This document shows, in pieces, positions 1,328 to 57,501 of a stretch of 64,000 nt of DNA. Position 1 is the first letter of the stretch. Each line of letters starts with the position of its first letter. The DNA lies in assembly GCA_052033375.1 (NCBI GenBank), contig JBPOJQ010000003.1:10503-74502 (forward strand), read 5' to 3'. A program made the translations under genes and the position numbers. Below the pieces are notes generated by a model. It was not told the DNA's origin and ran no database searches. It saw only the letters and a list, made by a program, of their open reading frames with translations. Source of the stretch: Candidatus Magasanikiibacteriota bacterium (GTDB lineage: Bacteria; Patescibacteriota; Patescibacteriia; Magasanikbacterales; UBA922).

Positions 1328-2752
1328 GTGTTCGCAAACATCACCTTTAGTTATCGAATGAGACAAATCTTGCTTCTGCTTGCTGATTTTGCTTCCTACT
1401 ACATAGGATTTATTCTGGCACTCAGCTTGCGCACTCTCTCGTTGCCGCCCATCGAAAATCTCGTACACCACCTAGGACCTTTTACCATAGTATTCAGTCT
1501 CTGGATCATTGCAAACTATGTAAACGGCCTCTATGATCTTCGCCTAATGACACTCAATAGCAATACACGCAGAACCATTGAATCTGCGATTGTTGCTTTT
1601 CTGATTGGAATGTTTTTTTTCTATCTCGTACCAAGCGACAACATTACCCCAAAAACAATACTCTTTCTCACTACGACAATTGGATTTGGTATTGCAGCCC
1701 TGTTTCGTGCGTTTTATCTCACCTACATCGGCACACATAAACTCAAAACACGAATTTTATTCCTTGGGGTCACTGAGGAGATACAAGAGCTTATCTCGAT
1801 TGTCACCAGTCAGCCGAACCTGGGATACCACGTCTCGGTTATTATTGATCCTGATAAGCATTTCCAAAAACCACCCCATCCAGGAGTAGAGCTCTACCAT
1901 ACACTAAATACCCTCCGACCTGCGATAGACACGCAACACATTCATACCGTAGTTGTGGCACCTGATATGAGTAACAAGGACGAGGTCAAACGTGAATTAT
2001 ATGAACTCCTCTTCTGGCAAGTGCAAATCCTTGATATGACTTCTTTTTATGAGATGGTAACTGGCCGAATTCCTCCAAGCACTTTTTCTGAAAGCTGGTT
2101 CCTAAGTAATTTGCAAACAGCCGAACATCCTGTATACACCAAAGCAAAACGTGGAGTTGATATTATCTTTGGTGTTTTTTTTGGATTAATTTTTATTATA
2201 CTTTTCCCTCTACTGGCAATCGCGATCAAACTTTCATCTCCAGGCCCTATTTTTTTCAAACAACAACGCGGAGAAAGAGAGACCAATCGAATGGTTGGCG
2301 AAGGTGGAAAAATTTTTTGGATGTACAAACTTCGAACAATGTATGTTCTTGCCGAAGATGGAAGTGCAGAAACACATGGATATGAATTCGCCAAAAAAAA
2401 CGATACTCGGATTACTCCGGTTGGCACATTTTTGAGAAAAACACGACTTGATGAATTACCTCAAGCTTTCAATCTCCTCAAAGGTGAAGTGACTCTGGTT
2501 GGCCCTCGACCAGAGCGTCCTGAAATAGTTGAAAAGCTTACTCAACTTATGCCGTATTATCCACTTCGCCATATTATTAAACCAGGTATCACCGGTTGGG
2601 CAGCAATACAACAACACTATACTGATGATATTGAGTCATCTCTCAAAAAACTACAATACGACCTGTACTATATTAAAAATAAATCAGCACTTCTTGACCT
2701 CTCGATTATACTTCGCACCATTAATGTAGTACTCAGAGGAATGGGACAATAA
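1328..2752 (+). CDS. Polyprenyl-phosphate glycosylphosphotransferase, the initiating sugar transferase (WbaP/EPS family)
   Basis: N-terminal transmembrane segments are present. The C-terminal catalytic block KLRTM...RLDELPQAFNLLKGEVTLVGPRPERPE is the hallmark of the bacterial sugar-transferase family. Confidence 0.8.
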   Translation: MFANITFSYRMRQILLLLADFASYYIGFILALSLRTLSLPPIENLVHHLGPFTIVFSLWIIANYVNGLYDLRLMTLNSNTRRTIESAIVAFLIGMFFFYLVPSDNITPKTILFLTTTIGFGIAALFRAFYLTYIGTHKLKTRILFLGVTEEIQELISIVTSQPNLGYHVSVIIDPDKHFQKPPHPGVELYHTLNTLRPAIDTQHIHTVVVAPDMSNKDEVKRELYELLFWQVQILDMTSFYEMVTGRIPPSTFSESWFLSNLQTAEHPVYTKAKRGVDIIFGVFFGLIFIILFPLLAIAIKLSSPGPIFFKQQRGERETNRMVGEGGKIFWMYKLRTMYVLAEDGSAETHGYEFAKKNDTRITPVGTFLRKTRLDELPQAFNLLKGEVTLVGPRPERPEIVEKLTQLMPYYPLRHIIKPGITGWAAIQQHYTDDIESSLKKLQYDLYYIKNKSALLDLSIILRTINVVLRGMGQ

Positions 2753-3075
2753 GAGTCGAAAATACACTGTTATTTAAGAAACTTTATTAGACCTGAGAGC
2801 AACTTTGAAATTTCAATAGATACAAGTATTTTCTTTGGTGAGGTGCCCTAGTAAACGCAAGGTATCATATAGACCGGACTTCTCCACATGATCCCTTTGA
2901 GACAAAAAGAAAATGGGAGAATTCTTTGTCTCCCTTTCTTTCAACACCTTTGGCAATATTTCATGATAGAGAGTGAGGCTCTCTGAATCTGATCTTTGAA
3001 ACTGTAATCTTTACAGTTCTGTACGCTATAATAAATACCGCATGTCAATCTTTTTGCTTTTTGCCATGCACTAAT

Positions 3076-3996
3076 TTATTCGATTCCCCATTCTTTTTTG
3101 AGTTCAGCAATTCCTTCTTCAAGAGAAATTGTAGGTTCCCAGCCAAGTAATTTTTTTGCCTTAGTGTTATCTGCTTGTGTAAAACGCATTTCACCAGGAA
3201 ATGATTCTACCAGCGTTGTTTCCCCGCCAATAAGCTCTGCGAGCTGATTCACCGAATATGGATGATTATTACCAATATTGATAGTTTCACCTTTTCCCAC
3301 TGTATCCTTGGTCATTGCAAGTATATTTGCCCGGACCACATCCGCCACATGCGTGTAATCTCGATAAAACTCACCATCACCACGAATCGTAAGCGGTTGA
3401 TTATTTTTTCGTTGCTGCAAAAATTTTCCAATAACCAACGCATAAGCACCCTCAGGATCAGCAAATTGTCCAAACACATTAAAATATACCAATGAGACTG
3501 TCTCTACTCTATACAATTCAGAAAATAATCGGCAATACTCCTCGCCTATAAATTTATGTAACGCATACGGAGCTAATGGTTTTTTAATCATGCTGTCCTC
3601 TTTCAGGGGATACATTTCTCTCGGTTGATCACCGTATGTTGAAGACGAGGAAGAGAATACTACACGTTTAGCTCCTGCGTCCCTCGCAGCAAGCAATACA
3701 TTGAGTGTACCATTCACATTTACATCATGGGTTTCTTGCGGGTGCTCGACTGAGTATACTACACGAGGCAGAGCTGCCATATGAAAAACCCCATCAACAC
3801 CCTTCATTTCACGAATCAATAGATCTAAGTCGCGAATATCGCCTTCGATGTATTGCACACCTTTCTGCAGACGTTCTTCTTTCCGTCCACCTGAAAAATT
3901 ATCAATTACCGTGACTAGATGTCCTATCTTTTTTAGCTCGATCACTAGATTGGTTCCAATAAATCCTGCCCCACCGGTTACGAGATAATGTGCCAT
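3076..3996 (-). CDS. NAD-dependent nucleotide-sugar epimerase/dehydratase (extended SDR, UDP-hexose 4-epimerase-like)
   Basis: N-terminal Rossmann motif VTGGAGFIGTNL, a YxxxK catalytic region and a conserved GalE/WbpP-like C-terminus. Confidence 0.75.
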   Translation of the reverse strand: MAHYLVTGGAGFIGTNLVIELKKIGHLVTVIDNFSGGRKEERLQKGVQYIEGDIRDLDLLIREMKGVDGVFHMAALPRVVYSVEHPQETHDVNVNGTLNVLLAARDAGAKRVVFSSSSSTYGDQPREMYPLKEDSMIKKPLAPYALHKFIGEEYCRLFSELYRVETVSLVYFNVFGQFADPEGAYALVIGKFLQQRKNNQPLTIRGDGEFYRDYTHVADVVRANILAMTKDTVGKGETINIGNNHPYSVNQLAELIGGETTLVESFPGEMRFTQADNTKAKKLLGWEPTISLEEGIAELKKEWGIE

Positions 3997-4016
3997 ATTT
4001 TTAGGATTAGCGTTAG

Positions 4017-5426
4017 TTAGTGAGATTTCGACTGAGAAAAAAATGGAGAGCCGACCGCAATCACAGAAAAACCTGCAGCAACCAAATCTGTATATTGATG
4101 TTGGAGAATCCGTCGACCATCCATAATAAGTGGTCGATTTTTTAGAGAGAGTAATTGGTCTCCAATTCCCCTAAACTGCGGCCAATCAGTAGCGATAATA
4201 CACACGTCAATGTCAGCTATTGCCTCGCTTGCATTATTGACATACGCAATCTTTTGATACAATTCATTCTTTTCAGGATTAAAGTATTTCTTAGCTTCCC
4301 CAAGTGCTGCAGGATCATACACTTTTATTTCTCCAACCCCAGTACCAAGTAATTCATGGATAATATTAATAGCACCTGAATTTCTAATATCATTTGTTGA
4401 CTGTTTGAATGCGACACCAAGCATACCTACTCGCTTGCCCGCCCACTGCACACCCGCATCAGTCTCTGCGCGACTAAAAAAATGATTACACTGGAATGTA
4501 TTCGCATCCAGAATCTCTCGAATAAGATGTGCGTGCGACCCTGCCTGTTCGAGCTGATTTGCAAGAGATGCTGCATCTTTGATAAAACAACTTCCACCTG
4601 CGTACAGACTATTATAGAGTCCCCAGGATCCGATACGGGGATCAGTAATCAAAATTTTTCTTACAGACTCATAATTTACATTATCGAAGTATTCGCACGT
4701 TCTCCCCACTACGTCATAGGTAGTGACCACTTTATTAAACAACAAAAAATTTGCCAGTAACTTTCCACACGCAGCTTCATAGGGATTCACTTCGATATAT
4801 GCAACAGTACTCGAGTCATAAAAACGCTGATAAATTTCACGCATGATCTGAAAATCTTCGGGTGTGTGTGCTCCCACTACCACTCGATCGGGATGTATAG
4901 AATCTTTGATTGCCTTCCCTTCAACAAGAAATTCTGGATTCGAGACAATACCAAAATTTTTTACCCCCTGTTCAGTAAATAATTTTTCCGTATAATCAAT
5001 CATCTGAATAGGGACTGTACTTTTATTCACAATCACCAATCGCTTTTCCTGTGCACCTCCATTTCGTCTAGATAGTAGAGGTCCCAGGTCTTTCACCGCC
5101 TGTTCATAATATGATAGATCGGTCTCTCCTGCTGCACCATGCTTTTCAGGTGTAGGAAGACACATAAAAACTACATCGACTCCGTGCACAAATTTCTCCA
5201 CGTCTGACAGTGTATTTGTGAAGGTAATCCGTTCGTTATTTCTAATTAAAAGCTCAGAGAGACCCTCCTCGTGAAGACATGACTGAATTGCCTCTCGATT
5301 ACCGCTCGAAAGTTTTTGTATCCTTATTGGGTCAATATCATATACGAGTGTATTATGTCCTGAATCTGCTGACACAGCTGCAGAACACGTACCTACAAAC
5401 CCCCCGCCAATATACAAAATATTCAT
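4017..5426 (-). CDS. UDP-glucose/GDP-mannose dehydrogenase family protein (UDP-glucose 6-dehydrogenase-like)
   Basis: N-terminal NAD-binding motif [11 protein letters not shown]. The catalytic cysteine motif [12 protein letters not shown] matches the GGSCFPKD consensus. Confidence 0.8.
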
Positions 5427-6361
5427 AACACTGTTCTAAAATATTCAATAGTTTCTTGTAATCCTTTGTTTATATCAATTTTTGGGGACCAATGCAAGAG
5501 CTTGCGAGCTTTAGTAATATCTGGACATCGCCGTCGCGGGTCATCAATTGGAAGCTTTTTCTCGACTATCTTGCTTTTGGAATCAGTCATTTTCTGTATC
5601 ATGGTAGCCAGCTCTTTTACGGTCTGTTCTTTTGGGTTGCCCAGATTAATAGGTCCTTGTAATTTCTTTCCCGAATTCATGAGTTTTATAAGACCATCTA
5701 CCAGGTCGCTTACATAGCAGAAACTACGTGTCTGAGTACCTTTACCGTACAAGGTAAGAGGCTTTTTTTGAAGTGCTTGGACAATAAAATTTGAAACGAC
5801 CCTTCCATCTTCTTTTGACATTCGCGGACCGTAGGTATTGAATATTCGCGCTACTTTAATCTCCATTCCATGCATGCGATGATAATCAAAAAATAAGGTT
5901 TCCGCCGCTCGTTTTCCTTCATCATAACATGCTCTCGGCCCAATCGAATTCACGTTTCCTCGATATTCTTCGGACTGTGGGTGTACTTCCGGGTCACCAT
6001 ATACTTCTGACGTAGACGCTTGAAGCACGCGCGCTTTGTGTTTTCGTGCAAAGCCTAAAACATTAATAACACCCATAGTACATGCTTTGGTTGTATGCAC
6101 TTGATTTGATTGGTAGTGAACCGGGGACGCTGGACATGCAAGATTATATACCTGATCTACTTTTTCTGTAATAAAAAAAGGGTCTACAATATCATGCTCG
6201 ATAAATTTAAAATTTTTATTTTTGAAAGCGTTCTCCAAATTTTTCTTCGAGCCGGTAAATAAATTATCAAGTCCAATCACTCGGTTCCCCTCTTTCAATA
6301 ACCGATCGGTCAAGTGTGAGCCGATAAATCCTGCAGCACCAGTAATAAGTATCGTTTTCAT
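5423..6361 (-). CDS. UDP-glucuronate decarboxylase (UDP-xylose synthase)
   Basis: [29 protein letters not shown] and [19 protein letters not shown] closely follow the UXS family signature. The start overlaps the upstream dehydrogenase by 4 nt. Confidence 0.8.
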
Positions 6362-6363: not shown

Positions 6364-7227
6364 TTACGTTTTTTTAAATATATTGTAGATACGTGCGATA
6401 ATCATTCGGCAGTTGATACCCAACCAAACAATTCCGTTCGTCACTACATTTGACTGTTTTGCGAAATGCTTTTGATAATATAACCACATCGCATCATAAA
6501 AATTAATAAGAGACTGCGCTTTCCGCTTCTTACTACTACTCCCACCAAGATGAATAATACGAGCCTCACTCACGTATACAATGCTCCACCCCTGATCTCC
6601 GATCCTCTTGCACCAATCCAAATCTTCTCCATAGAAAAAAAATCGTTCATCAAAACCACCTATTTTTTCAAACACTTCTCTTCGAAACATCATTCCAGCT
6701 CCGGAGATAGCCTCAACAGGTTCGGTTATATCAGGATTATCGCTCAATCTTTTATACGAGACAACATGTTTATTTTTTTTGAATATTTTTACCAGCCCAA
6801 AAAGATGAAAAAAGGCATTTTTTGGATTCGGTAAATTCCTCCGACACGCATGCTGAAATGTCATGTCCCCATTAAGCAGTTTTGGTCCTACGCACATAAC
6901 ATCTCTATGTTCATCCAAATATGCAACCAATACATTAACCGCACGATCGAGCACCACGGTGTCACTGTTCAATAAAAACATGTACTCACCTTGAGCAATT
7001 TTCATTCCCTGATTATTTGCTTTCCCAAAGCCCACATTTTCTGTGTTCTCAATTAATACTACCTGTGGAAATTCCTGCTTAATCATCTGAACACTCGCAT
7101 CTTTTGAATTATTATCAATCACGATAACTTCGTACTCAAACCCATGAGTTTCAGCAAAAATAGCACTAAGTGTCTGTCTCGTGAGATCACATGTATTCCA
7201 ATTCACTATGATAATTGAAAGTTTCAT
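6364..7227 (-). CDS. Glycosyltransferase family 2
   Basis: [16 protein letters not shown]...[14 protein letters not shown] is the GT-A DxD-type fold signature. Confidence 0.75.
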
Positions 7228-7229
7228 AG

Positions 7230-8189
7230 TTATTCTTTTTTAATCGCACCCATCCACCGTTCGTACACCCCGAGAGGCCAACCGCACATTTTTGCCACAT
7301 CACCGAGTATAATGACTGCGGGAAGTAAACATATACCAACGAACTTATATTGTATACTCTTATTCGCAGTAAATACAATCCAGCGTTTCCAAAACTTATA
7401 GTTATATATCAATATACCGCTAATAAGTAGTGCCCACAAACCTGGGTGTACTGCCCCCACAACACACAAACCTAGTGAAAAAACATACGTACTGTACCGA
7501 ATTATTTGTCGACCAAAAAATAATTGCGCATGTCCATCACCTCTCGTATATTTGAATAGTTGCAAACAATATTGTTTGAGTGTAGGTCGTGGTCTCCACA
7601 AAACTAGCGGTTCACGTATATACGTAGTCGGTATATTACATTTTTGTATATTGAGGTCAAATACAATGTCCTCACAAATCGGCAACCACTCAGGATACCC
7701 CCCTGCTTTTTCCCATACTGTTTTTTTAAACGCTACAGATCTACTTGAGGGTAGCCAGTCGTTCCCAAACTCATGTTTAGCTGGAATTGTAGCGGCGGCG
7801 ATGAGATACACTTTGAAAGGATCGCCTTTTTTGAACCATGGATTAAATGCAGTGGTCACAAATTCCGCTTCCAACTCTACTAAAGGGGTTGTAATTTTTT
7901 CAAACCACGCTACAGAATATGTACAGCCAGCATCCGCAACTACAATATAACTTCCTCGTGCATGAGCAATTGCCACATTTCTTCCGTGTGCTATATTTCC
8001 TTTTTCCTGAAAAATACGAAGTACAGTATTATTACGTGCCTGTTCTTGGAGCCATTCCCATGTGCCATCAGTAGACCCTCCATCGACAATGATGATTTCA
8101 TCAGGTTTTTTTGATTGATTAACAAAGCTGGTAAGCCATTCAGCTATATTATTTTTCTCATTCAAAACAGTCGTTATTAACGAAATCAT
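7230..8189 (-). CDS. Glycosyltransferase family 2 with a C-terminal membrane anchor
   Basis: ISLITTVLNEKNNIAEWL...IIIVDGGSTDGT in the N-terminal half, with hydrophobic helices in the C-terminal third. Confidence 0.7.
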   Translation of the reverse strand: MISLITTVLNEKNNIAEWLTSFVNQSKKPDEIIIVDGGSTDGTWEWLQEQARNNTVLRIFQEKGNIAHGRNVAIAHARGSYIVVADAGCTYSVAWFEKITTPLVELEAEFVTTAFNPWFKKGDPFKVYLIAAATIPAKHEFGNDWLPSSRSVAFKKTVWEKAGGYPEWLPICEDIVFDLNIQKCNIPTTYIREPLVLWRPRPTLKQYCLQLFKYTRGDGHAQLFFGRQIIRYSTYVFSLGLCVVGAVHPGLWALLISGILIYNYKFWKRWIVFTANKSIQYKFVGICLLPAVIILGDVAKMCGWPLGVYERWMGAIKKE

Positions 8190-9088
8190 ATTTTAGACTT
8201 TAGTCGCTTCAGCCACAAGCTGATTGAACCTAAACACGCTATTTCACCCATCATAACGAATTGACGTACACCTTTTTTGTATTTTTTTATAAAGATTTCT
8301 AAAGCACTCAAAAATAACTTCAACCTTTTCTCGTCATACCTCGTCTTAAAACTTCCCCCATAGACATGGAGTACGGGATCCGCATTAATAGCTTTGACTT
8401 GCCATTTAGAACGTTTCAACCGAAAACACAAATCAGTTTCCTCGAAATACATAAAATAATCTTCAGCTAATAATCCCACTTCTTCAAGTGCCTCTTTACG
8501 TAGCATACACGCAGCTCCAGTCACATAGTCAAGCTCTATCCCATCTATTGGTAGTTGCTGTGGAAATAGTGCAATACTTTTCAGTTTCTGTCTAATATTC
8601 TTTGGAAAAAAGATGGGTATGGGAATCAAATAGGTGAATACATTCATAACTGTTGGGAAATACCCACCGACTGATTGTAGCTCTCCGGTTGGATAAATTA
8701 ATTGAGGACTAAGTGCACCAATTTTTGAGTGCTCACTCATATACACATATAAATCTTCCAAGCTTTTCACCCCTGCTTCCGTATCACTATTAAGCAACCA
8801 GATGTATGGTTGCGTTGAATATTCTCTAATTGCACGATTATTTGCTCTAGCAAATCCTATATTTTCCTGATTTTCAATAGTAATTACATCTGGAAATTTC
8901 ATTTTAACTTGTTCGACTAACCCATCCTCTGAATTATTGTCAACCAAAATGACTTGCGCTGGAGTTACTGACGAATTATACAATGCCACCAAAGCTTTGT
9001 ATGTGAGCTCGGGTGTTTTGTAATTCACAATAATTACTGACACTGGGACAGTTTTTTTATTCTCCATAGCGTGCAGATTTCTGTGCAA
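8186..9088 (-). CDS. Glycosyltransferase family 2
   Basis: VSVIIVNYKTPELT...VILVDNNSEDG. Confidence 0.75.
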   Translation of the reverse strand: MHRNLHAMENKKTVPVSVIIVNYKTPELTYKALVALYNSSVTPAQVILVDNNSEDGLVEQVKMKFPDVITIENQENIGFARANNRAIREYSTQPYIWLLNSDTEAGVKSLEDLYVYMSEHSKIGALSPQLIYPTGELQSVGGYFPTVMNVFTYLIPIPIFFPKNIRQKLKSIALFPQQLPIDGIELDYVTGAACMLRKEALEEVGLLAEDYFMYFEETDLCFRLKRSKWQVKAINADPVLHVYGGSFKTRYDEKRLKLFLSALEIFIKKYKKGVRQFVMMGEIACLGSISLWLKRLKSKI

Positions 9089-9926
9089 TCAAAAATAATG
9101 TATCTCGAACATTGAGTGGAATTGCTCTAGATCTCAAAACAGACTTCGAACACCAGGTTGCTAATCGTGAAAAAAAATTAAATCCGGTCCAACTATACAA
9201 CAGACGAATAATATAGGGTATCGTAAACCATTTTCCATGATGAGAAACCTTAACAATACCAAGTCCTTTTTTATTCAACAAATTCTTCAAATGTGACACT
9301 CGAAAATAAAATAAGTGTTGCGGCGGCACAAATGCATGCCATCGTTTGCCCCACGCTCGCGCCCACACACTTCCAGCATCTGGCGTAGTTATAACAATCA
9401 CACCCCTATCTGTCAACATACGCGCTGCTTTTTCGAGAGTTAGTACAGGATCTTTCACATGCTCAATTAAATCATACATAACAATGACGTCAAATTTTTC
9501 TTCTGTTTCGTAGGTATCAAGGGATGCAACTGATACTTGCAAACCTTTTTTCTTTGCTTTTTCTACAGCATACTCAGACAAATCAATTCCTGAAACTGCC
9601 CACCCTCTCTCTCGTGCACGTTCCAAAAAAAATCCGGTCGCACACCCCACCTCAAACATAGTAATTTTCTGATGATCTCCAAATACCTTTGTTATTTCAT
9701 CGAGGTATCCTTCATAGGTCTTTTGTGTCACTTCTTTGTCCTGCTCATAATCCATATACCCATCAAGACTCACGTCTCCCGTAAAATAGCCCTCAGCATA
9801 GTAAGGCGCTAAATCCTCGGGCACATTTTCAACAGCCATCAGTTTACATTGCGGACATTTTTCAATACTAAATCCTTTTTTAGTGAAAAAATATTTCATT
9901 GCTCCTTCACAATTGATGCATTTCAT
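9057..9926 (-). CDS. Class I SAM-dependent methyltransferase with an N-terminal Cys4 zinc ribbon
   Basis: CxxC...CxxC at the N-terminus (MKCINCEG...CPQCK). The SAM-binding motif is FEVGCATGFFLERA. Confidence 0.7.
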   Translation of the reverse strand: MKCINCEGAMKYFFTKKGFSIEKCPQCKLMAVENVPEDLAPYYAEGYFTGDVSLDGYMDYEQDKEVTQKTYEGYLDEITKVFGDHQKITMFEVGCATGFFLERARERGWAVSGIDLSEYAVEKAKKKGLQVSVASLDTYETEEKFDVIVMYDLIEHVKDPVLTLEKAARMLTDRGVIVITTPDAGSVWARAWGKRWHAFVPPQHLFYFRVSHLKNLLNKKGLGIVKVSHHGKWFTIPYIIRLLYSWTGFNFFSRLATWCSKSVLRSRAIPLNVRDTLFLIAQKSARYGE

Positions 9927-11473: not shown

Positions 11474-11475
11474 AC

Positions 11476-13831: not shown

Positions 13832-13840
13832 ATATGCTTC

Positions 13841-47557: not shown

Positions 47558-48285
47558 TGTGGCGCATTGCTCTTTCTTTGGTCATCATGTTACTCGTGGC
47601 CTGCGACATCACGGACGGTGAATCATACGAGTCCCTCTCGATACACAGAGAGGATGTCACAGACACATCGAGTGACGGTGTACTCCAGCCAGCAGATGAC
47701 ATCATCCTCGAACATGGGCTCATGCGTGTCGAGAAAATCGACACTGCTCTTAGCCATCTATTCACCCCCGACACCACGTCTGATTCCACATCTGATGTAC
47801 AGGCACCCGACACTGCCGTACCAGACGAAATCGAGGTACTGTTCACAGAGACTATCCCCTGTACAGAGGACTGGCACTGTGCACCTGGCAAAGAGTGCAC
47901 TCCTGATGGACTCTGCATCACACAGCTCGTGTGGATCGCTGTCATTACAGGGTCCGACGGCTCTCATCCGCCAGTACTGGACCACAGCGGAGAGGAAGTC
48001 ACACTCTGGTATGGACGTGAACCATGGACAGAGACACATCAGGTTCCCTACACAGGATGGCTCCCGCTCGCAGAACTCTGCGAGAGTGGGATTGAAATGG
48101 AACTCCGGAATCCGTCTGACGACGGGTATCCATATGGCGAAGGATGTGTGACTGATTTCAAGAATCTGACACCCTACCTATTCGCCAAGCGACTGGAGTT
48201 CACCATCCATGAGAGCGGTACTGGAGACATGTGTCCAGAGATGCTCCACATCGCTCGAGATCAACTACCCTGCGACAAGGACTGA
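47558..48285 (+). CDS. Secreted lipoprotein of the same family, with the shared C-terminal LWYG module (GC-rich)
   Basis: Lipobox LLVAC with the same CDIT continuation. SD AGAGGAA 5 nt upstream. The C-terminal VTLWYGREPWTETH aligns with KVKLWYGNHTEPETY of the 60165-60902 gene. The ORF-track start at 47419 is AT-rich leader. Confidence 0.6.
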
Positions 48286-49705: not shown

Positions 49706-49854
49706 ATGCTACAGATATACACAGTTATATCGGATTAACGAACATCGTAGTATAACACAGACAAGAGCTTTTGTCAAGCATGGTTTTCTCTCTGGTATAT
49801 GATATAAAATTGCTTATTTTAGCCATTTTTTTACTTCTTCTCCCCTATACGTTC

Positions 49855-51705
49855 TTAGCGTACAGTACCACCTTTTGCACCCCCTCGCGCATCTGTGTTG
49901 AGCGATGCATCAAAAGCACCGAGCGCACGCGTGAAAGAGTAGCCGATATACGAATCCCACCCAGAAATTTCGACACTCTGTATCAAAACTGGAGTGGTGC
50001 CGCGATCAGCCTCAGTCGGTGTCAAACTAAGCTCAAAAAATACACCTGCATTCGAGTGTGCTGAAATAGTTCCCATATTCCAACGTAGTGTGCGTGTCGA
50101 TGGAGTATATACTGGTGCTGAACCTTGGGTAACACTAGTTTTTCCAGTCCACACGACTCCAGGAGACAATCGCGCAGTAAATATACCCTCAGTCACATTA
50201 CTCGTTGTGTTACGTATAGTGAATAGACCTGCATACTTGGTCTCTTTTCCCACTTCAGGAGGAAGAGGTCCTCTACCCAATTGATCCCCCTCATCCGTAT
50301 AATAACGAATTTCACCAACCAATGTGACGTCAGTACCAACTTTGATTGATTCAGGTACTGAGACCGCCTCTACTGATACTTCTGGTGCTAATAGCACATT
50401 CCCTTTAAATCGAACCGTGGGCTGAAGTACGATATTGGTACCTGCATCAGATGTGGAAATAACTGGAACTAATAAGGTGATGACTCGTGATTCTCCGGAT
50501 GGTATTGAACGCAAATTAGTGTGACGGACTGAATTAAGTGTCACGGTATTCTGAGCTATCGAGCCTGCATTTGCTCGTGCTGCTTCTGACACATTTACTG
50601 TTCCTCGTGGAAACGACACCTCAATCACTCCTCCCGACAACTCTACAGTACCTCTATTGAAAATATTCACTAATAGCCTTCCTGTCTCACCAGGTTTGAG
50701 AGATGAAATCGCTGAATCCCACGCAGTGGTTATCTGCACTTCAGGATGTCCAATTGTCATGGTTTTTTTCACGACTGATTGTGGAATCGTCTTCCCCTGC
50801 ACGATAATTGCTGGTGCAAGTTCGATTGTATACCCGGACTGTGGGAGAGTGTCTGAGATATGCAATGATCCCCGTAATGTCACCGCCACATTCGGACGTA
50901 ATTCAGATACTGACCACGCATGCTGGTCTCCCAGACCTTCAGTCGTTGAGACATGTTCTACGACTCCAATTGTCTGGAACGGTGCAAGTGGAAATACGAT
51001 ATCTCGCAATATCTCATCGCCTGTGTTGGTAAGCGTGATAGAAAAAGGAATATGTGAATCTTCAATCACCTTATCCTGGATGTCGATTGATGCATTGAGA
51101 AGTGAACCACGCAAAAATATGATATGCGGACCTACTTTTTCTTCAACATGATTCTTTCCGTCCTGTCGATATGCGATCGTTGCATGAATATGATCTTCTA
51201 CATTGGGTGTTCCATAAAATCTTCCTGCCACTGATACACTCCCTTCTTCACCCACTCCAATAGTTCGAAGATTGAATGTCTGCGTTTCACTTTCGAATTG
51301 CTCTTTCGGTTCAGCTGCACCGACAATAAAACCATCGGGCAACTCGACAGATAATCGCACATCAGCCAAACGCACACTGCTCTCATTTGTATAGTTAATG
51401 GTATATGTGACATATTCACCACTCAATACCCTATCCTTCGAAGGGACGACAGAGAGATACACCAACTCGGTCACTGTCGGATTATACGTACTCCACCCAA
51501 GCAGTGCAGCACCAATGACTATGAGTGTTGCCACCAATGACATGTCGAATAAAAATAATTTTCTTGCATGTGAAAACTGGAGATGATACCGCTTTTGATA
51601 ATGCATCTCGGCAAAATGAATTGGTGATGCTAAAAATGCGAAAAACCATCGATGTGGAGCGTGGAATAAATGGTGCTTAGTGAGATGTGTTTCAACGAAT
51701 TTCAT
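49855..51705 (-). CDS. Membrane-anchored beta-rich repeat protein (DUF11/CARDB-like), hypothetical
   Basis: N-terminal transmembrane segment LVATLIVIGAALLGW, then about 550 aa of beta-strand-rich Thr/Val/Ser repeats with no catalytic motif. Confidence 0.4.
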   Translation of the reverse strand: MKFVETHLTKHHLFHAPHRWFFAFLASPIHFAEMHYQKRYHLQFSHARKLFLFDMSLVATLIVIGAALLGWSTYNPTVTELVYLSVVPSKDRVLSGEYVTYTINYTNESSVRLADVRLSVELPDGFIVGAAEPKEQFESETQTFNLRTIGVGEEGSVSVAGRFYGTPNVEDHIHATIAYRQDGKNHVEEKVGPHIIFLRGSLLNASIDIQDKVIEDSHIPFSITLTNTGDEILRDIVFPLAPFQTIGVVEHVSTTEGLGDQHAWSVSELRPNVAVTLRGSLHISDTLPQSGYTIELAPAIIVQGKTIPQSVVKKTMTIGHPEVQITTAWDSAISSLKPGETGRLLVNIFNRGTVELSGGVIEVSFPRGTVNVSEAARANAGSIAQNTVTLNSVRHTNLRSIPSGESRVITLLVPVISTSDAGTNIVLQPTVRFKGNVLLAPEVSVEAVSVPESIKVGTDVTLVGEIRYYTDEGDQLGRGPLPPEVGKETKYAGLFTIRNTTSNVTEGIFTARLSPGVVWTGKTSVTQGSAPVYTPSTRTLRWNMGTISAHSNAGVFFELSLTPTEADRGTTPVLIQSVEISGWDSYIGYSFTRALGAFDASLNTDARGGAKGGTVR

Positions 51706-51837
51706 AGATATCTATCTCAAAACTTAAAACTCAAAATTCAAAACGAGAACTACAAATGTACAACTCCTTATTCTTCAATGTAATAATACTTGATCCAAGC
51801 ATATTTGCAACTTCTGCAAGCTCATTTTGTTTTTATT

Positions 51838-53847
51838 TTACAATGCCCCTTCACTCAACGTCACAATTTCATCTATTCCATCAAAATCAATATCAAGTGC
51901 TCGCACCTCTACCCCTGGCTTGAATACTGTAGAGTATGCGTCAAATGATTTGTATTTTTCTTTTCCCTCAAGTGAGAATACTCTGACTGTCGGTTTTCCT
52001 CCATATCCTTTTCCTGCAATAATTTCCTGCACCCCATCTCCATCCACATCTCCAGCAGCTACTGACACCCCGCCTGTAAACGATGTTTCAAAAGCTGTAA
52101 ACGAATGTATTTTTTTATACTCATATCCAAATAAAGTGATCGTCGGACGTGCTCCTGCTCCTGACCCAACAATGAGACGGGATGGTACTTTTTCTGTTGC
52201 CTTGGTCAGACTAATGTGATACCCGCCTGTATAGGTATTTCCAAATGGAAAAAAATCATTTGCTAATGTATTCCCATGACGATTGTACGACCGAATTGGT
52301 TCTCGAAAACCTGCGCTCGGCGCTGTATATATTTCATAAAAGCCATCATTATTCAAATCACCCACTGCCACATTCAATGAACCTGTATAATTTGCACCAT
52401 ACGGCATCAATCTGAATAAAATCTGGCCATCATCTCTCCATGCTTGAATTTTATTTCCCATCACCACAATCAATTCTTCAGCTCCATTAAAATCCAAATC
52501 AATGTGAGCAATCTGAGCACCACCTTTGTGTTTCTCCTCAAAAACGAAGAATCCATTTTTTGCCCGCTCGCCATCTGCTCTGAAAAAACGAGCAAAAAAA
52601 CCATTGGTAAACACAATCTGTTTGAGCGTCTGAAATGTCTTGAGTAATATAATTCCATCTTTTGGCGCAAGTGTGACTTCTGCAACAATTGCTCCATTAT
52701 TTATTTCTGTATCCTGCGTACCATGTATTTTTTCATATTCACCACCGAGAGAGACACCTCGCGTCTCGCCTGTACTATTGACAACCGCAATTCCATTTTC
52801 AAATGTTCTACTCCACACGTCTTCGGCATATTTGGATTTTCCTGTCTGCGAGCGTGCAGATCCGAGCGGATCGCCAAGCGATACTCCATATTCATCATAA
52901 TTCCACAGCCGTGCATGATCCTTGTCCCCATAATCAAACGAATAGTAGCCATTTTCAAGCAATGCTGAAGTAAGACCAAAACGCATACTGCGATAATTTT
53001 TTGCATTCTCGACATTTCCTGTATTTGCATTGATAATATTCACTGTTGGTCGATTTCTTGTAAGCTGATTCTCCTGATACACAGACATAATTTCTGACCA
53101 TGGATGATTCTGAAAATTTTCAATCATCTTTCCATTGAGTGATTCAGTATACCCTCGCGTATGCCCATTACCGATAATAATAGGATCACCCGGAGCCTGT
53201 GCGCGAGTATCCTCATATAATTTTTTCATTCCTTCATACCATTTCTGGTCAATACCTGTATCTGGAGACCCGTTGCGATCATAATCTACCCGAGTACCTG
53301 AAAACCATGTGAGATCTTTCCACGCATTATCATAAAATACACCGTCCCATACTCCAGATCCCAAAATTTCTGTAGCAACAAAATGAGACAAGTACTCATT
53401 GAAATTCTTTCCATTATGTTCTGGGGCATTTTCAGCTAGATTGAGCATTGTCGTGCCCTGCCAAAAACTATATGCAGCACCCAGGTCGTTTGCCAGATAC
53501 CACTCGGAAGAAATTCCTCGCGCCAAACGATCACGCATCTTACTCGGACCCCCGAGCGCATCATTTCGAATTTCTTGGGGAGTAATGTATGCAAGCAAAA
53601 TAATCCCCGGATTCAAGCGACGCAATTCACGGAGACGCTCGGGATTGGTCACTTGATTTTCCATATCAAGGACCAAGAGATCCCATTTTGCAAGTTCACG
53701 CATCTCAGCATCCGTAATACTCCATTTCAAAAAATAATTTGCAGTTTTTGGATACGTCTCAGTATATGCAACAGACACACTCACTACAGTGCCATATGCG
53801 CACAGTCCGAGAAACAAAATTGATTGTATGAAACGCGCCAATGTCAT
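51838..53847 (-). CDS. Secreted glycoside-hydrolase-like (GHL) domain protein with C-terminal FG-GAP/VCBS repeats
   Basis: Signal peptide. The N-terminal about 400 aa (WDGVFYDNAW..., GNGHTRGY...) resemble the putative glycoside-hydrolase GHL families. The C-terminus carries calcium-binding FG-GAP-type repeats: DLNNDGFYEI, GDVDGDGVQEII, DIDFDGIDEIV. Confidence 0.45.
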   Translation of the reverse strand: MTLARFIQSILFLGLCAYGTVVSVSVAYTETYPKTANYFLKWSITDAEMRELAKWDLLVLDMENQVTNPERLRELRRLNPGIILLAYITPQEIRNDALGGPSKMRDRLARGISSEWYLANDLGAAYSFWQGTTMLNLAENAPEHNGKNFNEYLSHFVATEILGSGVWDGVFYDNAWKDLTWFSGTRVDYDRNGSPDTGIDQKWYEGMKKLYEDTRAQAPGDPIIIGNGHTRGYTESLNGKMIENFQNHPWSEIMSVYQENQLTRNRPTVNIINANTGNVENAKNYRSMRFGLTSALLENGYYSFDYGDKDHARLWNYDEYGVSLGDPLGSARSQTGKSKYAEDVWSRTFENGIAVVNSTGETRGVSLGGEYEKIHGTQDTEINNGAIVAEVTLAPKDGIILLKTFQTLKQIVFTNGFFARFFRADGERAKNGFFVFEEKHKGGAQIAHIDLDFNGAEELIVVMGNKIQAWRDDGQILFRLMPYGANYTGSLNVAVGDLNNDGFYEIYTAPSAGFREPIRSYNRHGNTLANDFFPFGNTYTGGYHISLTKATEKVPSRLIVGSGAGARPTITLFGYEYKKIHSFTAFETSFTGGVSVAAGDVDGDGVQEIIAGKGYGGKPTVRVFSLEGKEKYKSFDAYSTVFKPGVEVRALDIDFDGIDEIVTLSEGAL

Positions 53848-53850
53848 ACA

Positions 53851-54933
53851 TTAATGAGATGAAACAAATGATGCATATATTTGTGCAATGGCACGATAAT
53901 GATCGTGTATATCGCCCTGTTGCTGTACATACTTCTGTGCTGTCTTTCCGACATTCGATATTTTTTCTGGATTCTCAAGCACCTGTCCAAGCAGACGTTT
54001 CAATTCTTGAACATTGCCTGTTTCGAACAGATACCCTGTGCGTGCATTCTCGATGATCCCCGCCCCCGCAGCAGTGCTTGCAATAACCACCCGACCTGCT
54101 GCCATAGATTCGAGTACTACGAGACTCATACCTTCCCATAACGACGGCTGTAGTACGATATCGATATCTTTGAGGGCCATCGCCATATCACTCTCATATC
54201 CATGCCAGACGATACGATGCGCAATTCCCAGTGCTCGCGCAGTATATTCCAATTCAGACTGAAGACTTCCCTCTCCATACACATGGTACTCCCACGGAAG
54301 ATGCTTTAATTCAGCGAGTGCACGCAATGCGTACACGTGCCCTTTTTGTTCTTCCAATCTTCCAATTGTTGCAAGTGATATATGTGTCGCATCTATTTTT
54401 TTTGTAGTGACTCTGCGCCATTTTTTCGTCTCAACTCCGTTATAGATAATGCGTATTTTTTCTTCAGGAATATTGAAATGGTCACGCGAATATACTGCCA
54501 CCGAATCAGATACGGCCACGACTGCGTCAACTTTTTTCAAACATATTTTCCATATCATACGCTTCATAAACGATGTATGATATTCCACATTATGCACCGT
54601 CGAAATCCAGATAGTCTGAGGGTATATCCGTTTCCATGCATATCCAATGATGTCACCCCCCATCAGATGGGTGTGAATGATATCTGGCTTGATGCGCAAC
54701 AACTCACGTTTCAAAAATTTCCACACACCCCACCGTCCCCCATGCACCTTCCGACTTCCCACAATCAATCGCGCTTTTGTCTGCTCGAACAATGGACGCA
54801 ATGCACCGTCATCGACACTACTCATCACATATACTGAAAAATCTTTTTTGCTAAATTCTTGTGCATACTGCAACACCAGACGTTCAGCGCCACCTGGATA
54901 TAATCGTGGAATGACTTGTACAATCGTGGTCAT
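53851..54933 (-). CDS. Glycosyltransferase family 4
   Basis: From the internal Met: MTTIVQVIPRLYPGGAERLVLQY, plus C-terminal GT4 motifs. The upstream extension of the ORF (MCCIAMNAK...) is unlikely to be real. Confidence 0.7.
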   Translation of the reverse strand: MTTIVQVIPRLYPGGAERLVLQYAQEFSKKDFSVYVMSSVDDGALRPLFEQTKARLIVGSRKVHGGRWGVWKFLKRELLRIKPDIIHTHLMGGDIIGYAWKRIYPQTIWISTVHNVEYHTSFMKRMIWKICLKKVDAVVAVSDSVAVYSRDHFNIPEEKIRIIYNGVETKKWRRVTTKKIDATHISLATIGRLEEQKGHVYALRALAELKHLPWEYHVYGEGSLQSELEYTARALGIAHRIVWHGYESDMAMALKDIDIVLQPSLWEGMSLVVLESMAAGRVVIASTAAGAGIIENARTGYLFETGNVQELKRLLGQVLENPEKISNVGKTAQKYVQQQGDIHDHYRAIAQIYASFVSSH

Positions 54934-54940
54934 AAATCTA

Positions 54941-56422
54941 TTAGGTAATCTCGGTATCGATTTTATATTTATTTGGTCTGAAATGAGTATAAAATGCATC
55001 TCCTTCGCGTTCATGGCGATACAGCACATGCGCCGATATCGCCAACATCAATGGCACCCACATACGCGCTGAATAATATTGGGTATTAAACAGTTGAAAA
55101 AATAAAGGGGCGATAATAAGACACAGACACAAATGTGCAACCGCGCGAGCCTCGAGAGTATATTCTTTTGATTTGATACGCGCGTATACCGAGGATATAA
55201 GTATACCAATAAATAACCCAAATGTAGCGACCCCTACGATCCCCTGTTCGGATAAAATTTTCATGAGAATACTATGTGCATCAATTGGATCGCCAAATTC
55301 ATATGTAAAATAACGTACATCTTCCAATCGTCCAACGAAGGTCCCCACTCCTTGTCCAAACAATGGATGTTCTAGAAAAAAATTCCAGGCGACTTCTGTC
55401 AGCGTGATACGTGCACTATTCGAAGACGAGACGACAGCGCTCTGCAAAAGCATACCCATATATACCCCCGCAGGAATAAAAAATATAAGTATACCAATCA
55501 TATAGCCTCTTATTTTTTTCCATTTGATATGTGATCGAAATATATACAGTGCAAGTACTCCCTCGACAATAAGCGTAAGCCAACTTGCCCGAGAAAAGGT
55601 AAGAAACGCAGTAACGCCACAGATAATACTCGCACAAATATACACAAGCCTGCGCACATCAGTCTTTGCAGCATAGGCAAGATATATTGCAATTGGCAAC
55701 GCCACCACCAGCACTTCGGCAAGCAAAATATGGCCACTAAAGACATCATAATTAAATGGTTGCCAACCGAATACTGAAATCGGCACGGCACGCGCAATGC
55801 TTCCGCTTCCCCCGACGACAAAAGATAGTAGCCCCAATAGTGCACCAATAACACCCATCCACACTACCACTTCGAGTGCATGGGATAGTGTTTTTTTGGT
55901 ACGTATAATATTTGCACCCAAAACCACGTATGCAATATACACAAATACGATAAATCGTATGGTGTAAGAAATACTCGGCTGCAATTCCCATCCTCCCACA
56001 TTCATCAATGATACTGCGGCAGATGCTACAAACAATCCATACCATGTAATCTCTGGAAGATTAATCCGATGTTTTTCTCCATATAACCATTTGCGTATTA
56101 AATAGAATATATATGAGCCAACCATAAGTAGTGCCCACATATCGACCATTGGCGCATACAATTCGAATATTTCAGAAGATGATCCAAGTATTCCACGAAA
56201 TATGTCGGCATGAAATTCCCACCCAATAAGTGGATAGAGAATAAGCAGAATATAGAGGCCTGCTTCCAGATGGTACGAAAAAAATAACATAACCAAACAT
56301 ATCAACAGTCCCAAGACCGCTATATTTCCCTTGAGCATCAACGCAAGTAGTATCAGAGCTATGAGCGCACCCACTCCAAATATTCCTGAAAATTTTGATG
56401 TTTCAGACTGAGGAATACTCAT
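54941..56422 (-). CDS. O-antigen ligase/polymerase-like (Wzy_C) polytopic membrane protein
   Basis: About 12 transmembrane helices with a Wzy_C-like loop FLTFSRASWLTLIVEG. Confidence 0.55.
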   Translation of the reverse strand: MSIPQSETSKFSGIFGVGALIALILLALMLKGNIAVLGLLICLVMLFFSYHLEAGLYILLILYPLIGWEFHADIFRGILGSSSEIFELYAPMVDMWALLMVGSYIFYLIRKWLYGEKHRINLPEITWYGLFVASAAVSLMNVGGWELQPSISYTIRFIVFVYIAYVVLGANIIRTKKTLSHALEVVVWMGVIGALLGLLSFVVGGSGSIARAVPISVFGWQPFNYDVFSGHILLAEVLVVALPIAIYLAYAAKTDVRRLVYICASIICGVTAFLTFSRASWLTLIVEGVLALYIFRSHIKWKKIRGYMIGILIFFIPAGVYMGMLLQSAVVSSSNSARITLTEVAWNFFLEHPLFGQGVGTFVGRLEDVRYFTYEFGDPIDAHSILMKILSEQGIVGVATFGLFIGILISSVYARIKSKEYTLEARAVAHLCLCLIIAPLFFQLFNTQYYSARMWVPLMLAISAHVLYRHEREGDAFYTHFRPNKYKIDTEIT

Positions 56423-57501
56423 ACACTGGTGGTAGTAATCTTACGATATATGTCCTCATACGCCTTTGACATAGTCTCTACGCTCCCCCTTTTCTCCACC
56501 CACCGCTTTCCTTGGACTGCTATTTTTTTTGCCAGAATTGGATTCGAGATATATTCTCGGATGGCTTGTGCGAGCTGTCGACTGTCCTCTGCTTCGACCA
56601 ATACACCATTTTCTCTATCACTAATAATTTCGGGGATACCCCCGACACGGGAAGCGATTACGAGCCGGCCTGATGCCAATGCTTCGAGGATGACGATTCC
56701 CAGCCCCTCCCACCGCGAAGGAGCGAGCACTATATCTGCGTCTGCATATGCCGCGGCAGCATTCTCGGTTGCTGGTTTCCACATCACACGATCACCCAAT
56801 CCTAATTCTTTGGCATACTGCATGAGTTGTTCTTTTTTTTCTCCCTCACCCACTATTGTCAACATGCATGGGATATCAGTAATTTTTTGTAGTGCCTCAA
56901 GCGCACGCGCGTGTCCTTTTTGTTCTACCACTCTTCCAATCATGAGTAATTTATATGGCGATGCAAAAGATGCGGGGGGGATTTTGGCAAAATGCGCTAA
57001 TTCAATACCATGCATAATCACTCGAGTATGTTCGGGTGCAATCCCATACGCAATTTTCATGTATTCTCGGACAGCATGTGACGGCGCCGTGTACACGCGA
57101 GAATAATTTTTCATTACACGTTTGATTCTTCCCCAGAGCCACGATTCTTGTAAATTAATATTATGTTCAGTTGTGACTACAGGAATATCCACTGACTTTG
57201 CAGCCAGTCTACCCCACAAATCTGCACTAAAAAGATGTGTATGTACTACATCAGCCCCCATACCACGGAGCATCTGTGCCAGTTTTTTTCTGCGACTCAG
57301 ATACCCGATGTGATCTAGCGGAAACACGCTACATGCAACAGTGGATGGTAATTCCCGAGCAAGCGGACGATCATCCCAGAGTGTAATCACTGACTGACGA
57401 ATATATTTTGATGATATGTGTTTTGCAAGCGATACCACAAAACGCTCGGCTCCTCCGAAACCAAGTCTAGGAATAATATGCACGACGTGTATTTGTTTCA
57501 T
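56419..57501 (-). CDS. Glycosyltransferase family 4
   Basis: IHVVHIIPRLGFGGAERFVVSLAKH, and the C-terminal EGLGIVILEALASGRLVIASRVGGIPEII. Confidence 0.75.
   Translation of the reverse strand: MKQIHVVHIIPRLGFGGAERFVVSLAKHISSKYIRQSVITLWDDRPLARELPSTVACSVFPLDHIGYLSRRKKLAQMLRGMGADVVHTHLFSADLWGRLAAKSVDIPVVTTEHNINLQESWLWGRIKRVMKNYSRVYTAPSHAVREYMKIAYGIAPEHTRVIMHGIELAHFAKIPPASFASPYKLLMIGRVVEQKGHARALEALQKITDIPCMLTIVGEGEKKEQLMQYAKELGLGDRVMWKPATENAAAAYADADIVLAPSRWEGLGIVILEALASGRLVIASRVGGIPEIISDRENGVLVEAEDSRQLAQAIREYISNPILAKKIAVQGKRWVEKRGSVETMSKAYEDIYRKITTTSV

Follow-up and report, generated by a model that had tools for sequence, protein, structure and literature searches.

Relation to described systems

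The described systems closest to the locus reported here are the surface-layer (S-layer) glycosylation, or slg, clusters of Geobacillus stearothermophilus NRS 2004/3a (sgsE, wsaA, wsaB, wsaP) and Paenibacillus alvei (wsfA-H, wsfB, wsfP), the model clusters being about 16-25 kb long. The predicted S-layer O-oligosaccharyltransferases (O-OTases) of these organisms, WsaB in G. stearothermophilus and WsfB in P. alvei, carry a Wzy_C domain like PilO and PglL; a C-terminal tetratricopeptide repeat (TPR) motif is found in WsfB and PglL, whereas WsaB has none but follows a small TPR protein, WsaA (PMC2943079). The surface gene sgsE lies near its slg cluster as a transcription unit of its own, initiation in slg clusters is of the WbaP type, and the P. 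alvei cluster includes an Asn synthase homologue (wsfA) and a pair of proteins that load glucose onto a lipid carrier and transfer it as a branch (PMC2943079). Here we describe a locus with many of the same parts in a 64,000-nucleotide stretch of Candidatus Magasanikiibacteriota (hereafter the window; assembly GCA_052033375.1, contig JBPOJQ010000003.1, positions 10,503 to 74,502), in which the gene for a secreted, S-layer-like surface protein stands beside that for a TPR-bearing Wzy_C protein (Wzy_C-TPR). We read this locus, with a probability of roughly 55%, as a Magasanikbacteria surface glycosylation island of slg-like type, which would O-glycosylate its surface or S-layer protein; the support for this reading comes from conserved synteny.

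The likeness to the slg clusters begins with a surface gene, here predicted to be transcribed separately, beside a glycan cluster. It extends to a WbaP-type initiator, an Asn synthase homologue, a pair of genes for single-sugar branches via a lipid carrier, methyltransferases and tightly packed, overlapping genes. Compared by reported architecture, the transferase of the window combines Wzy_C with a fused TPR, as in WsfB, while relatives also have a separate small TPR protein, as in WsaA/WsaB. The putative counterpart of the S-layer gene transcribed alone is here, as judged from the genes, that of an adjacent acidic secreted protein of 125 kDa followed by a conserved strong terminator. Relative to slg clusters, the locus additionally has a second Wzy_C gene, a cassette of extracytoplasmic function (ECF) sigma factor, anti-sigma-like and helix-turn-helix (HTH) genes, a size of ~55 kb and a host from the Candidate Phyla Radiation (CPR).

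Two other families of transferases are instructive. WaaL of Cupriavidus metallidurans (PDB 7TPG) shares its fold and Arg/Arg/His motifs with Wzy_C-TPR but has 12 transmembrane (TM) helices and no TPR, whereas Wzy_C-TPR has a 13th TM helix and a ~200-residue TPR domain that is predicted to be external. A described CPR (Parcubacteria) genome is without the lipid A/lipopolysaccharide (LPS) genes lpxC and kdsA, and the lipid A-core acceptor of WaaL is not expected in CPR bacteria (PMC5220378); if our host resembles that genome, a classical WaaL role is unlikely because the acceptor would be absent. With PglL and TfpO (PilO) of Neisseria, Acinetobacter and Pseudomonas, the locus shares the Wzy_C domain, the combination of a conserved transferase with a variable glycan locus and, by our reading, en bloc transfer after Wzx-type flipping. 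Unlike those enzymes, Wzy_C-TPR showed no PglL_A or Wzy_C_2 domain and its gene lies beside that of a single putative dedicated acceptor, not of many periplasmic proteins; unlike the hosts of PglL, moreover, a CPR host is thought to be a monoderm without LPS, an assumption borrowed from other CPR genomes.

External TPR domains and paired transferases are also known from TMTC1-4, which are membrane glycosyltransferases (GTs) with a lumenal or external TPR acting on β-sandwich (cadherin) domains, and from the Streptococcus mutans Pgf system, in which GtrB-like family 2 glycosyltransferases (GT2) and membrane transferases work in pairs to modify surface adhesins. TMTC, PMT and Pgf proteins differ in fold, being GT-C enzymes that use dolichyl- or undecaprenyl-phosphate monosaccharide donors. 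The small GT2 proteins of the window match the PgfS model at family level, far below equivalog cut-offs (NCBIfam).

Linkage of the surface protein and Wzy_C-TPR

A species scan with one genome per species revealed 202 genomes with a relative of Wzy_C-TPR, from which 80 loci (given L numbers below) were fetched. We searched profile hidden Markov models of the cassette against the six-frame open reading frames (ORFs) of the fetched loci and restricted the counts to the 62 loci that had 4.5 kb or more of upstream sequence. A recognisable surface-protein gene was found upstream of the ligase gene and on the same strand in 48 of these, with the full cassette in 35, while an unrecognised ORF of 1159-1302 aa occupied the surface-gene position at three more. 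The conserved core reads HTH_17 regulator (divergent), ECF sigma factor, anti-sigma-like protein, surface protein of ~1200 aa, strong terminator and Wzy_C-TPR, with the sigma and anti-sigma-like genes conserved in at least 35 loci. Four relatives, with identities of 80, 60, 47 and 46%, share this order; each encodes an anti-sigma-like protein of ~400-430 aa and a surface protein of 1205-1264 aa and has its glycosyltransferase and nucleotide-sugar genes after Wzy_C-TPR. The surface and ligase genes were separated by less than 350 bp in 22 of the 48 loci (21 at ≤311 bp and one overlapping pair), and their pairing was retained down to 28-46% protein identity. Among source-named homologues of the two proteins, nearly all belong to Candidatus Magasanikbacteria or Patescibacteria. 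The surface protein and the transferase are strongly linked throughout the lineage.

These comparisons also set the limits of the conserved unit. The sequence-only reading had treated the ~55 kb as one supercluster whose conservation in related genomes should be checked: the core cassette (48/62) and the block at 48.5-57.5 kb are conserved, but the 55 kb is not conserved as one unit. For the core, relatives do not show the scattering among unrelated operons that would have spoken against a common function. The second block is partly present in L001 and L002, and in the distant GCA_016193335.1 (L087), whose surface protein is 28% identical, genes for a DUF11 protein, GT4, GHL15-FG-GAP protein, GT4, Wzy_C and Cys-rich repeat proteins lie beside the cassette.

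Many relatives have further genes between the surface gene and Wzy_C-TPR. These encode a second Wzy_C(-TPR) paralogue of larger size (~720-750 aa), a small TPR protein (~205-240 aa) with a single membrane helix, or both (L003, L004, L009, L029, L062, L064, L068, L072, L073, L075, L077 and L080). The window has the fused form only.

A hairpin of ≤-18 kcal/mol within 120 nt of the surface-gene stop codon occurred in 47 of 47 relatives compared with 7 of 141 random segments; folding energy was the measure used, since the T-tract is itself paired with an A-tract lying upstream. Such a strong, conserved terminator fits a surface gene that is a separate and probably highly expressed transcription unit, and this strongly terminated unit is probably controlled by the adjacent ECF sigma/anti-sigma pair.

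Structure of the transferase and its proposed acceptor

The AlphaFold2 (AF2) model of Wzy_C-TPR, built from a 37-sequence alignment with a predicted local distance difference test (pLDDT) score of 87, has a WaaL-like polytopic fold that includes the large external loop between TM9 and TM10. Its closest solved structure is the WaaL O-antigen ligase (7tpg_B; Foldseek E 2.5e-6, TMt 0.65). Twelve WaaL-type helices are followed by a K/R-rich segment (residues 441-462), a 13th helix (465-501) and the TPR domain (509-696), a departure from the 12-TM architecture without extra domains that characterizes WaaL. Because of the 13th TM helix and the position of all K/R-rich loops on one side, the TPR domain is placed outside, on the side of the catalytic loop, and is thus predicted from the positive-inside rule and the WaaL topology to be extracytoplasmic. 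Across the 37 sequences the mean column identity was 55%, with 90 invariant columns, among them R227, R304 and H354, which align with the WaaL motifs 'GTRGA', 'VRLKIW' and 'AHND'. In profile searches, family profile A1 matched 9rmk_A (deposited name 'Oligosaccharyltransferase', 610 residues; E 4.7e-5) and WaaL 7tpg_B (8.7e-5) about equally, while the smaller profile A3 had WaaL as its sole PDB match. When single sequences of the two Wzy_C membrane domains were searched against the PDB, no match resulted; only profiles reach WaaL or the oligosaccharyltransferase.

The listed GTG start of Wzy_C-TPR (39551) is probably too far upstream; relatives start at Met11 (ATG 39521). A promoter-like TTGCAA-17-TATAGT precedes the gene at 39582-39554 on the minus strand.

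The mature surface protein has a mass of 125 kDa and a pI of 4.2, and contains 11.7% Thr, 9.6% Ser (S+T 21%) and 0.5% Cys. In the AF2 model (pLDDT 84), a ~200-residue N-terminal α/β domain of three similar repeats leads through a short Pro/Thr/Ala linker into about eight immunoglobulin-like (Ig-like) β-sandwich domains in tandem. The N-terminal domain is the conserved part, and neither an LPXTG motif nor a membrane anchor was found in the protein; this domain therefore probably attaches it to the wall. Among source-named matches, the family is confined to Magasanikbacteria/Patescibacteria, keeps a length of 1.1-1.3 thousand residues throughout and diverges faster than the Wzy_C-TPR ligase. Relaxed Pfam scans (E up to 5) of the surface and anti-sigma-like proteins returned noise only (E 0.21 to 3.4). 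The Foldseek matches of the model are all generic tandem Ig-like arrays (such as hydin, PrgB and macroglobulins), which speak neither for nor against a specific S-layer family. The presence, 1229-aa length and secretion of this protein were as the sequence-only reading had stated, although the gene lies inside the glycan region and does not abut its edge.

Variable glycan genes and a proposed pathway

In contrast to the core, the glycan genes are exchanged even between close relatives. Where the ligase is 82-55% identical, no orthologue of the window glycan genes was found within 10 kb downstream of it (tblastn with all window proteins), and other glycan genes fill that space, such as the set of NTP-transferase, acetaldehyde dehydrogenase and thiamine pyrophosphate enzyme in L001. 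A trio of GT2, methyltransferase and 485-aa membrane protein, absent from these closest relatives, follows Wzy_C-TPR directly and in the same order in five distant ones (L056, L057, L065, L070 and L081), with a GT2 that is 63-65% identical and sometimes with Wzx included; in L069 the GT2 and 485-aa protein were found and the methyltransferase had no match. In these six loci it lies at ~12.0-16.5 kb. This patchy distribution suggests that the trio moved between lineages as a cassette. O-antigen, capsule and general O-glycosylation loci have the same pattern of a conserved transferase amid glycan cassettes that can be exchanged, and a conserved ligase with hypervariable glycan genes among close relatives is what a glycan-promiscuous transferase would be expected to show.

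By the O-glycosylation reading, the WbaP-type phosphoglycosyltransferase would prime polyprenyl phosphate, and cytoplasmic GT2 and GT4 enzymes would assemble an oligosaccharide or repeat unit from sugars supplied by the Ugd, short-chain dehydrogenase/reductase (SDR), DegT, amidotransferase, acetyltransferase and methyltransferase genes. Given those genes, uronic, amino, N-acyl and O-methyl sugars are expected. Wzx would flip the lipid-linked glycan, which might be polymerised by the second Wzy_C protein or the 485-aa membrane protein, and Wzy_C-TPR, holding the adjacent 125-kDa surface protein by its external TPR, would then transfer the glycan en bloc onto Ser, Thr or Tyr residues of this substrate. 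Two modules of GtrB-like GT2 and membrane transferase would attach single side-branch sugars outside the membrane. One of these, the PMT_2 and GtrB-like pair at 9923-12168, is a predicted lipid-carrier side-branch module. The L-2-hydroxyglutarate oxidase (LhgO) may regenerate 2-oxoglutarate from 2-hydroxyglutarate for a WbpB/WbpE-like oxidase-aminotransferase pair.

Alternative readings

The suggestion that a dedicated pathway decorates an S-layer protein gained partial support from the synteny, the slg-type architecture and the predicted external TPR, from which we infer both the acceptor and its S-layer nature. Several observations nevertheless count against it. Neither sequence nor fold tells O-OTases from WaaL ligases or some Wzy polymerases, and the structural comparison proposed in the sequence-only reading accordingly bore out the WaaL fold and Arg/Arg/His triad but did not separate O-OTase from WaaL. 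PglL_A (PF15864) and Wzy_C_2 (PF11846) were absent among the Pfam matches of Wzy_C-TPR at E ≤0.001, and the Foldseek matches of the surface protein include no known S-layer protein. At 11 of the 62 loci, the ligase gene sits in another, glycan-only context. Export here is by Wzx, whereas the model slg clusters use a Wzm/Wzt ATP-binding cassette (ABC) transporter. Glycosylation of the surface protein, its abundance and its assembly into a lattice are all predictions. Finally, S-layer genes also adjoin glycan loci where the glycan is a wall anchor, as with slpA of Clostridioides difficile.

This last case exemplifies the alternative that survives best, which we consider possible though doubtful: a Wzx/Wzy-made glycopolymer of the wall or membrane (secondary cell-wall polymer, capsule or lipoglycan), which Wzy_C-TPR would polymerise or ligate to a non-protein acceptor and which the surface protein would bind through its N-terminal domain. 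The set of Wzx, WbaP-type initiator and two Wzy_C proteins is what Wzx/Wzy polysaccharide synthesis ordinarily uses, the fold and catalytic triad of Wzy_C-TPR are those of a glycan-to-lipid ligase, and a surface protein with a conserved three-repeat N-terminal domain and no anchor of its own needs a wall ligand. Conserved adjacency would be equally consistent with a ligand-receptor pair, for which C. difficile offers a precedent: its slpA/cwp genes lie beside the locus for the anionic polymer PS-II, which LCP-type ligases link to the wall and which serves as the anchor of CWB2 domains. The locus described here shares an S-layer(-like) gene next to a large glycan locus but has neither LCP nor CWB2, and the neighbour of the surface gene is Wzy_C-TPR. 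Nor did Pfam scans of the window ORFs find a Wzz/polysaccharide co-polymerase (PCP) chain-length regulator, an LCP-family wall ligase or ABC-transporter domains of an exporter, Wzx (Polysacc_synt) being present instead. Wzy polymerases would be expected to co-occur with Wzz and normally co-vary with the repeat unit, and neither is seen here; the glycan genes turn over completely beside a highly conserved Wzy_C-TPR. A polymer that serves as anchor should likewise co-evolve with the conserved domain that binds it, whereas hypervariability is what these glycan genes show. Known S-layer O-OTases have a TPR module, either fused or adjacent (PMC2943079).

It is improbable that the 55 kb simply accumulated several independent envelope-glycan pathways and surface-protein genes (for example, a GtrB/GT-C route resembling protein O-mannosylation, a polysaccharide route or two, and the DUF11 and GHL15-FG-GAP proteins as separate surface proteins), with only regulation or location shared by the surface protein and Wzy_C-TPR: the three strand blocks, two Wzy_C genes, two nucleotide-sugar blocks and two GtrB-like modules with membrane transferases counted in the window would fit this, as would a 48.5-57.5 kb block conserved independently of 1.3-37.3 kb, a GT2-methyltransferase-485-aa(-Wzx) module that travels among distant relatives and the 11 loci without a surface gene, but the single initiator and single Wzx argue for a shared backbone pathway with side-branch modules, a tight same-strand adjacency kept down to 28-46% identity is hard to explain without a functional link, and for the core cassette the idea is compatible with O-glycosylation in any case.

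Within the O-glycosylation reading, a more far-reaching version can be put forward tentatively. Wzy_C-TPR might be a dedicated O-OTase that nearly all Magasanikbacteria keep beside their main surface-layer protein, with the TPR recognising its Ig-like domains or linkers, interchangeable glycan cassettes varying the coat of each species and the sigma/anti-sigma pair sensing the state of the layer. We found no description of such a system in CPR/Patescibacteria in the literature searched; if real, it would give the CPR its first defined system for a surface layer and protein glycosylation, and an entry point to what hosts and phages encounter on the surface of these episymbionts. At ~1 Mb per CPR/Patescibacteria genome, the locus would commit ~4-5% of the genome to surface glycans. 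It further provides a conserved, concrete pair that can be tested: a surface protein of ~1200 aa and a TPR-bearing Wzy_C transferase, the latter in ~200 species-level genomes. Confirmation would identify the major surface protein of Magasanikbacteria, extend the slg/PglL logic of en bloc O-glycosylation to the CPR and explain the hypervariable glycan cassettes as surface diversification, relevant to host attachment and phage evasion.

Gene content of the window

Pfam and NCBIfam scans, which covered the ORFs of at least 150 aa (about 50), confirmed that 1328-57501 (~55 kb) consists of near-continuous glycan-biosynthesis genes (Table 1), in agreement with the supercluster claimed by the sequence-only reading. 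Most of its inventory was recovered as well, including the initiating phosphoglycosyltransferase (Bac_transf, with TIGR03025 above cut-off), the Wzx-like flippase (Polysacc_synt), two Wzy_C proteins of which one is TPR-fused, two DegT aminotransferases, an AsnB-type amidotransferase and two acetyltransferases (GNAT and hexapeptide); the Dpm1-like synthase beside a PMT/ArnT-like GT-C corresponds at family level to the PMT_2 and GtrB/Dpm1/ArnC-like pair. Two counts had been set too high: Pfam supports 14 glycosyltransferases (8 GT2, 5 GT4 and 1 GT-C), where at least 16 had been given, and five methyltransferases, where at least six had been given. The 485-aa membrane protein is one further glycosyltransferase candidate. 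Among the nucleotide-sugar enzymes, the name Ugd stood, whereas UXS, Fcl and RmlD fell below equivalog cut-offs and apply at family level. The other assignments in the block at 3076-6361 were likewise below NCBIfam cut-offs. Six proteins of SDR epimerase, dehydratase or reductase type were found in the region (Pfam), including the UXS/ArnA-like and Fcl-like ones.

Table 1 Features of the window (positions in the 64,000-nucleotide stretch; GC3, GC content at third codon positions)
Feature	Position	Strand	Evidence or remark
Initiating polyprenyl-phosphate hexose-1-phosphate transferase, WbaP/WcaJ/WsaP type	1328-2752	+	Bac_transf 1.5e-55, CoA_binding_3; TIGR03025 352.6 bits vs cut-off 295.55
Nucleotide-sugar block: SDR 4-epimerase-like, Ugd, UXS/ArnA-like SDR	3076-6361	-	Pfam Epimerase, UDPG_MGDP_dh, GDP_Man_Dehyd
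Ugd (UDP-glucose 6-dehydrogenase)	4017-5426	-	NCBIfam NDP-sugar dehydrogenase 267.6 bits vs cut-off 189.8
UXS/ArnA-like SDR	5423-6361	-	Below NCBIfam cut-off
Eight GT2	At 6364, 7230, 8186, 11476, 15013, 25754, 26552, 36625		Pfam
Five GT4	At 13841, 15848, 48530, 53851, 56419		Pfam
Three GT2 and S-adenosylmethionine (SAM) methyltransferase	6364-9926	-	Glycos_transf_2 x3, Methyltransf_23
PMT_2 GT-C membrane glycosyltransferase	9923-11473	-	Pfam PMT_2 and PMT
GtrB/Dpm1/ArnC-like GT2, paired with PMT_2 GT-C	9923-12168 (pair)	-	Glycos_transf_2 8.6e-30; NCBIfam family-level matches PgfS, ArnC, AglJ
Two methyltransferases, then GT4, GT2, GT4	12165-17200	-	Pfam
AsnB-type glutamine amidotransferase	17152-19032	-	Asn_synthase 2.3e-86, GATase_7; TIGR01536 470.8 bits vs cut-off 267.1
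631-aa protein within sugar operon	19036-20931	-	Weak PP2C_2 (2e-4) and HD (0.05) only
DegT, SDR, L-2-hydroxyglutarate oxidase, GNAT, hexapeptide acetyltransferase, two GT2, DUF268-type methyltransferase	20940-28254	-	Pfam
L-2-hydroxyglutarate oxidase (LhgO) equivalog	23121-24332	-	NCBIfam 529.7 bits vs cut-off 299; between SDR and GNAT, near DegT
Plus-strand block: NUDIX-like protein, SDR, Fcl-like SDR, DegT, 262-aa SDR-like protein	28371-33155	+	Pfam
NUDIX-like protein	28371-29171	+	High-GC3 ORF
Second nucleotide-sugar block: SDR, Fcl-like SDR, DegT, 262-aa SDR-like protein	29368-33155	+	Pfam
Fcl-like SDR	30294-31220	+	NCBIfam GDP-L-fucose synthase 164.6 bits, under cut-off 500
Wzx-type flippase	33152-34450	-	Polysacc_synt 4.4e-21, Polysacc_synt_3
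485-aa polytopic membrane protein, candidate GT-C or polymerase	34437-35894	-	No Pfam match
Methyltransferase	35891-36619	-	Pfam
GtrB-like GT2	36625-37350	-	Pfam
Wzy_C-TPR, 704 aa, proposed O-OTase	37437-39551	-	Pfam Wzy_C 71.4 bits vs cut-off 31.7, and TPR
Strong intrinsic terminator hairpin 3' of surface-protein gene	39619-39644	-	11-bp stem, 8 G-C pairs, T-rich tail
1229-aa secreted acidic S-layer-like surface protein, proposed glycan acceptor	39693-43382	-	Signal peptide ending …VAQA, followed by ATC
Single-pass anti-sigma-like protein, 402 aa	43755-44963	-	Sequence; L003 homologue matches DUF5667
ECF-type sigma factor	44966-45577	-	Pfam Sigma70_r2, r4_2
Divergent HTH_17 regulator	45875-46285	+	Pfam HTH_17 5.5e-8; position conserved in relatives
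Cys/Asp-rich secreted protein	46438-47328	+	High-GC3 ORF, GC3 0.74
Cys/Asp-rich secreted protein	47419-48285	+	High-GC3 ORF, GC3 0.53
Second surface block: GT4, DUF11 surface protein, GHL15 + FG-GAP protein, GT4, 493-aa Wzy_C, GT4	48530-57501	-	Pfam
Second Wzy_C, 493 aa	54941-56422	-	Wzy_C 70.6 bits
High-GC3 ORF	57767-59815
High-GC3 ORF	60165-60914
High-GC3 ORF	61366-62373
High-GC3 ORF	62750-63895

A run at 3076-28254 on the minus strand holds 24 genes in 25 kb, tightly packed or overlapping. The initiating phosphoglycosyltransferase and Wzx flippase occur once each across the entire window (Pfam), in which Rfam detected no RNA family. The 493-aa Wzy_C protein aligns to the Wzy_C-TPR profile with an hhalign probability of 96% and keeps the Arg and His motifs; it may be a polymerase or a second ligase. 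The 631-aa protein had no NCBIfam match and no homologue in any of the 84 fetched loci, while the relaxed Pfam scan (E up to 5) gave nothing for the 485-aa membrane protein and a 288-aa ORF. Genes of other kinds, an HTH regulator and two high-GC Cys-rich ORFs, are found at 45.9-48.3 kb. At its left border, the glycan region meets a secreted subtilisin-like (S8) serine protease (3-1292, minus strand), incomplete at the window edge, with the D, H and S motifs …AIIDNGFD…, …HATVVAG… and …GTSFAAPF…; the right flank at 57.7-64 kb encodes high-GC Cys-rich repeat proteins.

Regulatory and high-GC genes

The anti-sigma-like protein has one membrane helix followed by a Ser/Thr/Pro-rich C-terminal tail (…NTPTAPTPVSTTTTNQTTSIPNTTTTKSGTSTQ) that is predicted to be extracellular. 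Because such low-complexity stretches are typical O-glycosylation targets, this tail could be a second glycosylation substrate, or it could sense the glycosylation state.

Base composition sets seven ORFs of the window apart, with a GC3 of 0.53-0.89 compared with 0.26-0.41 for all other genes and about 0.33 for their neighbours. Most are Cys/Asp-rich secreted proteins, one with clear Dicty_CTDC and TSP_3 repeats and the others with weak or no Pfam repeat matches, and the spacers between them have a GC content of only 0.42-0.45. Position-equivalent high-GC3 genes are present in L001 (1998-3152 and 19613-20170) and L002 (1557-2327), with the same pattern in L085, and homologues of the high-GC3 pair were identified by sequence in L005, L006, L012 and L013. 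In the distant L087 (10001-13450 and 21297-22508), two CTDC proteins have a GC3 of 0.84 and 0.94 among neighbours of 0.32-0.52. A chimeric assembly might have explained the stretches of 52-65% GC, but we ruled this out, since the same genes recur at the same positions of this locus in independent assemblies and in a distant relative, with AT-rich spacers. The bias could have arisen by recurrent transfer from high-GC (Myxococcota-like) donors, by GC-biased gene conversion between repeat paralogues or by selection on codon use.

Dozens of third-party metagenome-assembled genome (MAG) records that hold the Magasanikbacteria cassette (L006-L011, L013, L019 and others) are titled 'uncultured Gammaproteobacteria bacterium', one of them a complete 1.23-Mb chromosome (OZ246405.1), and another record is titled 'Candidatus Udaeobacter sp.'. 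Since these assemblies hold the same cassette, the titles look like mislabels.

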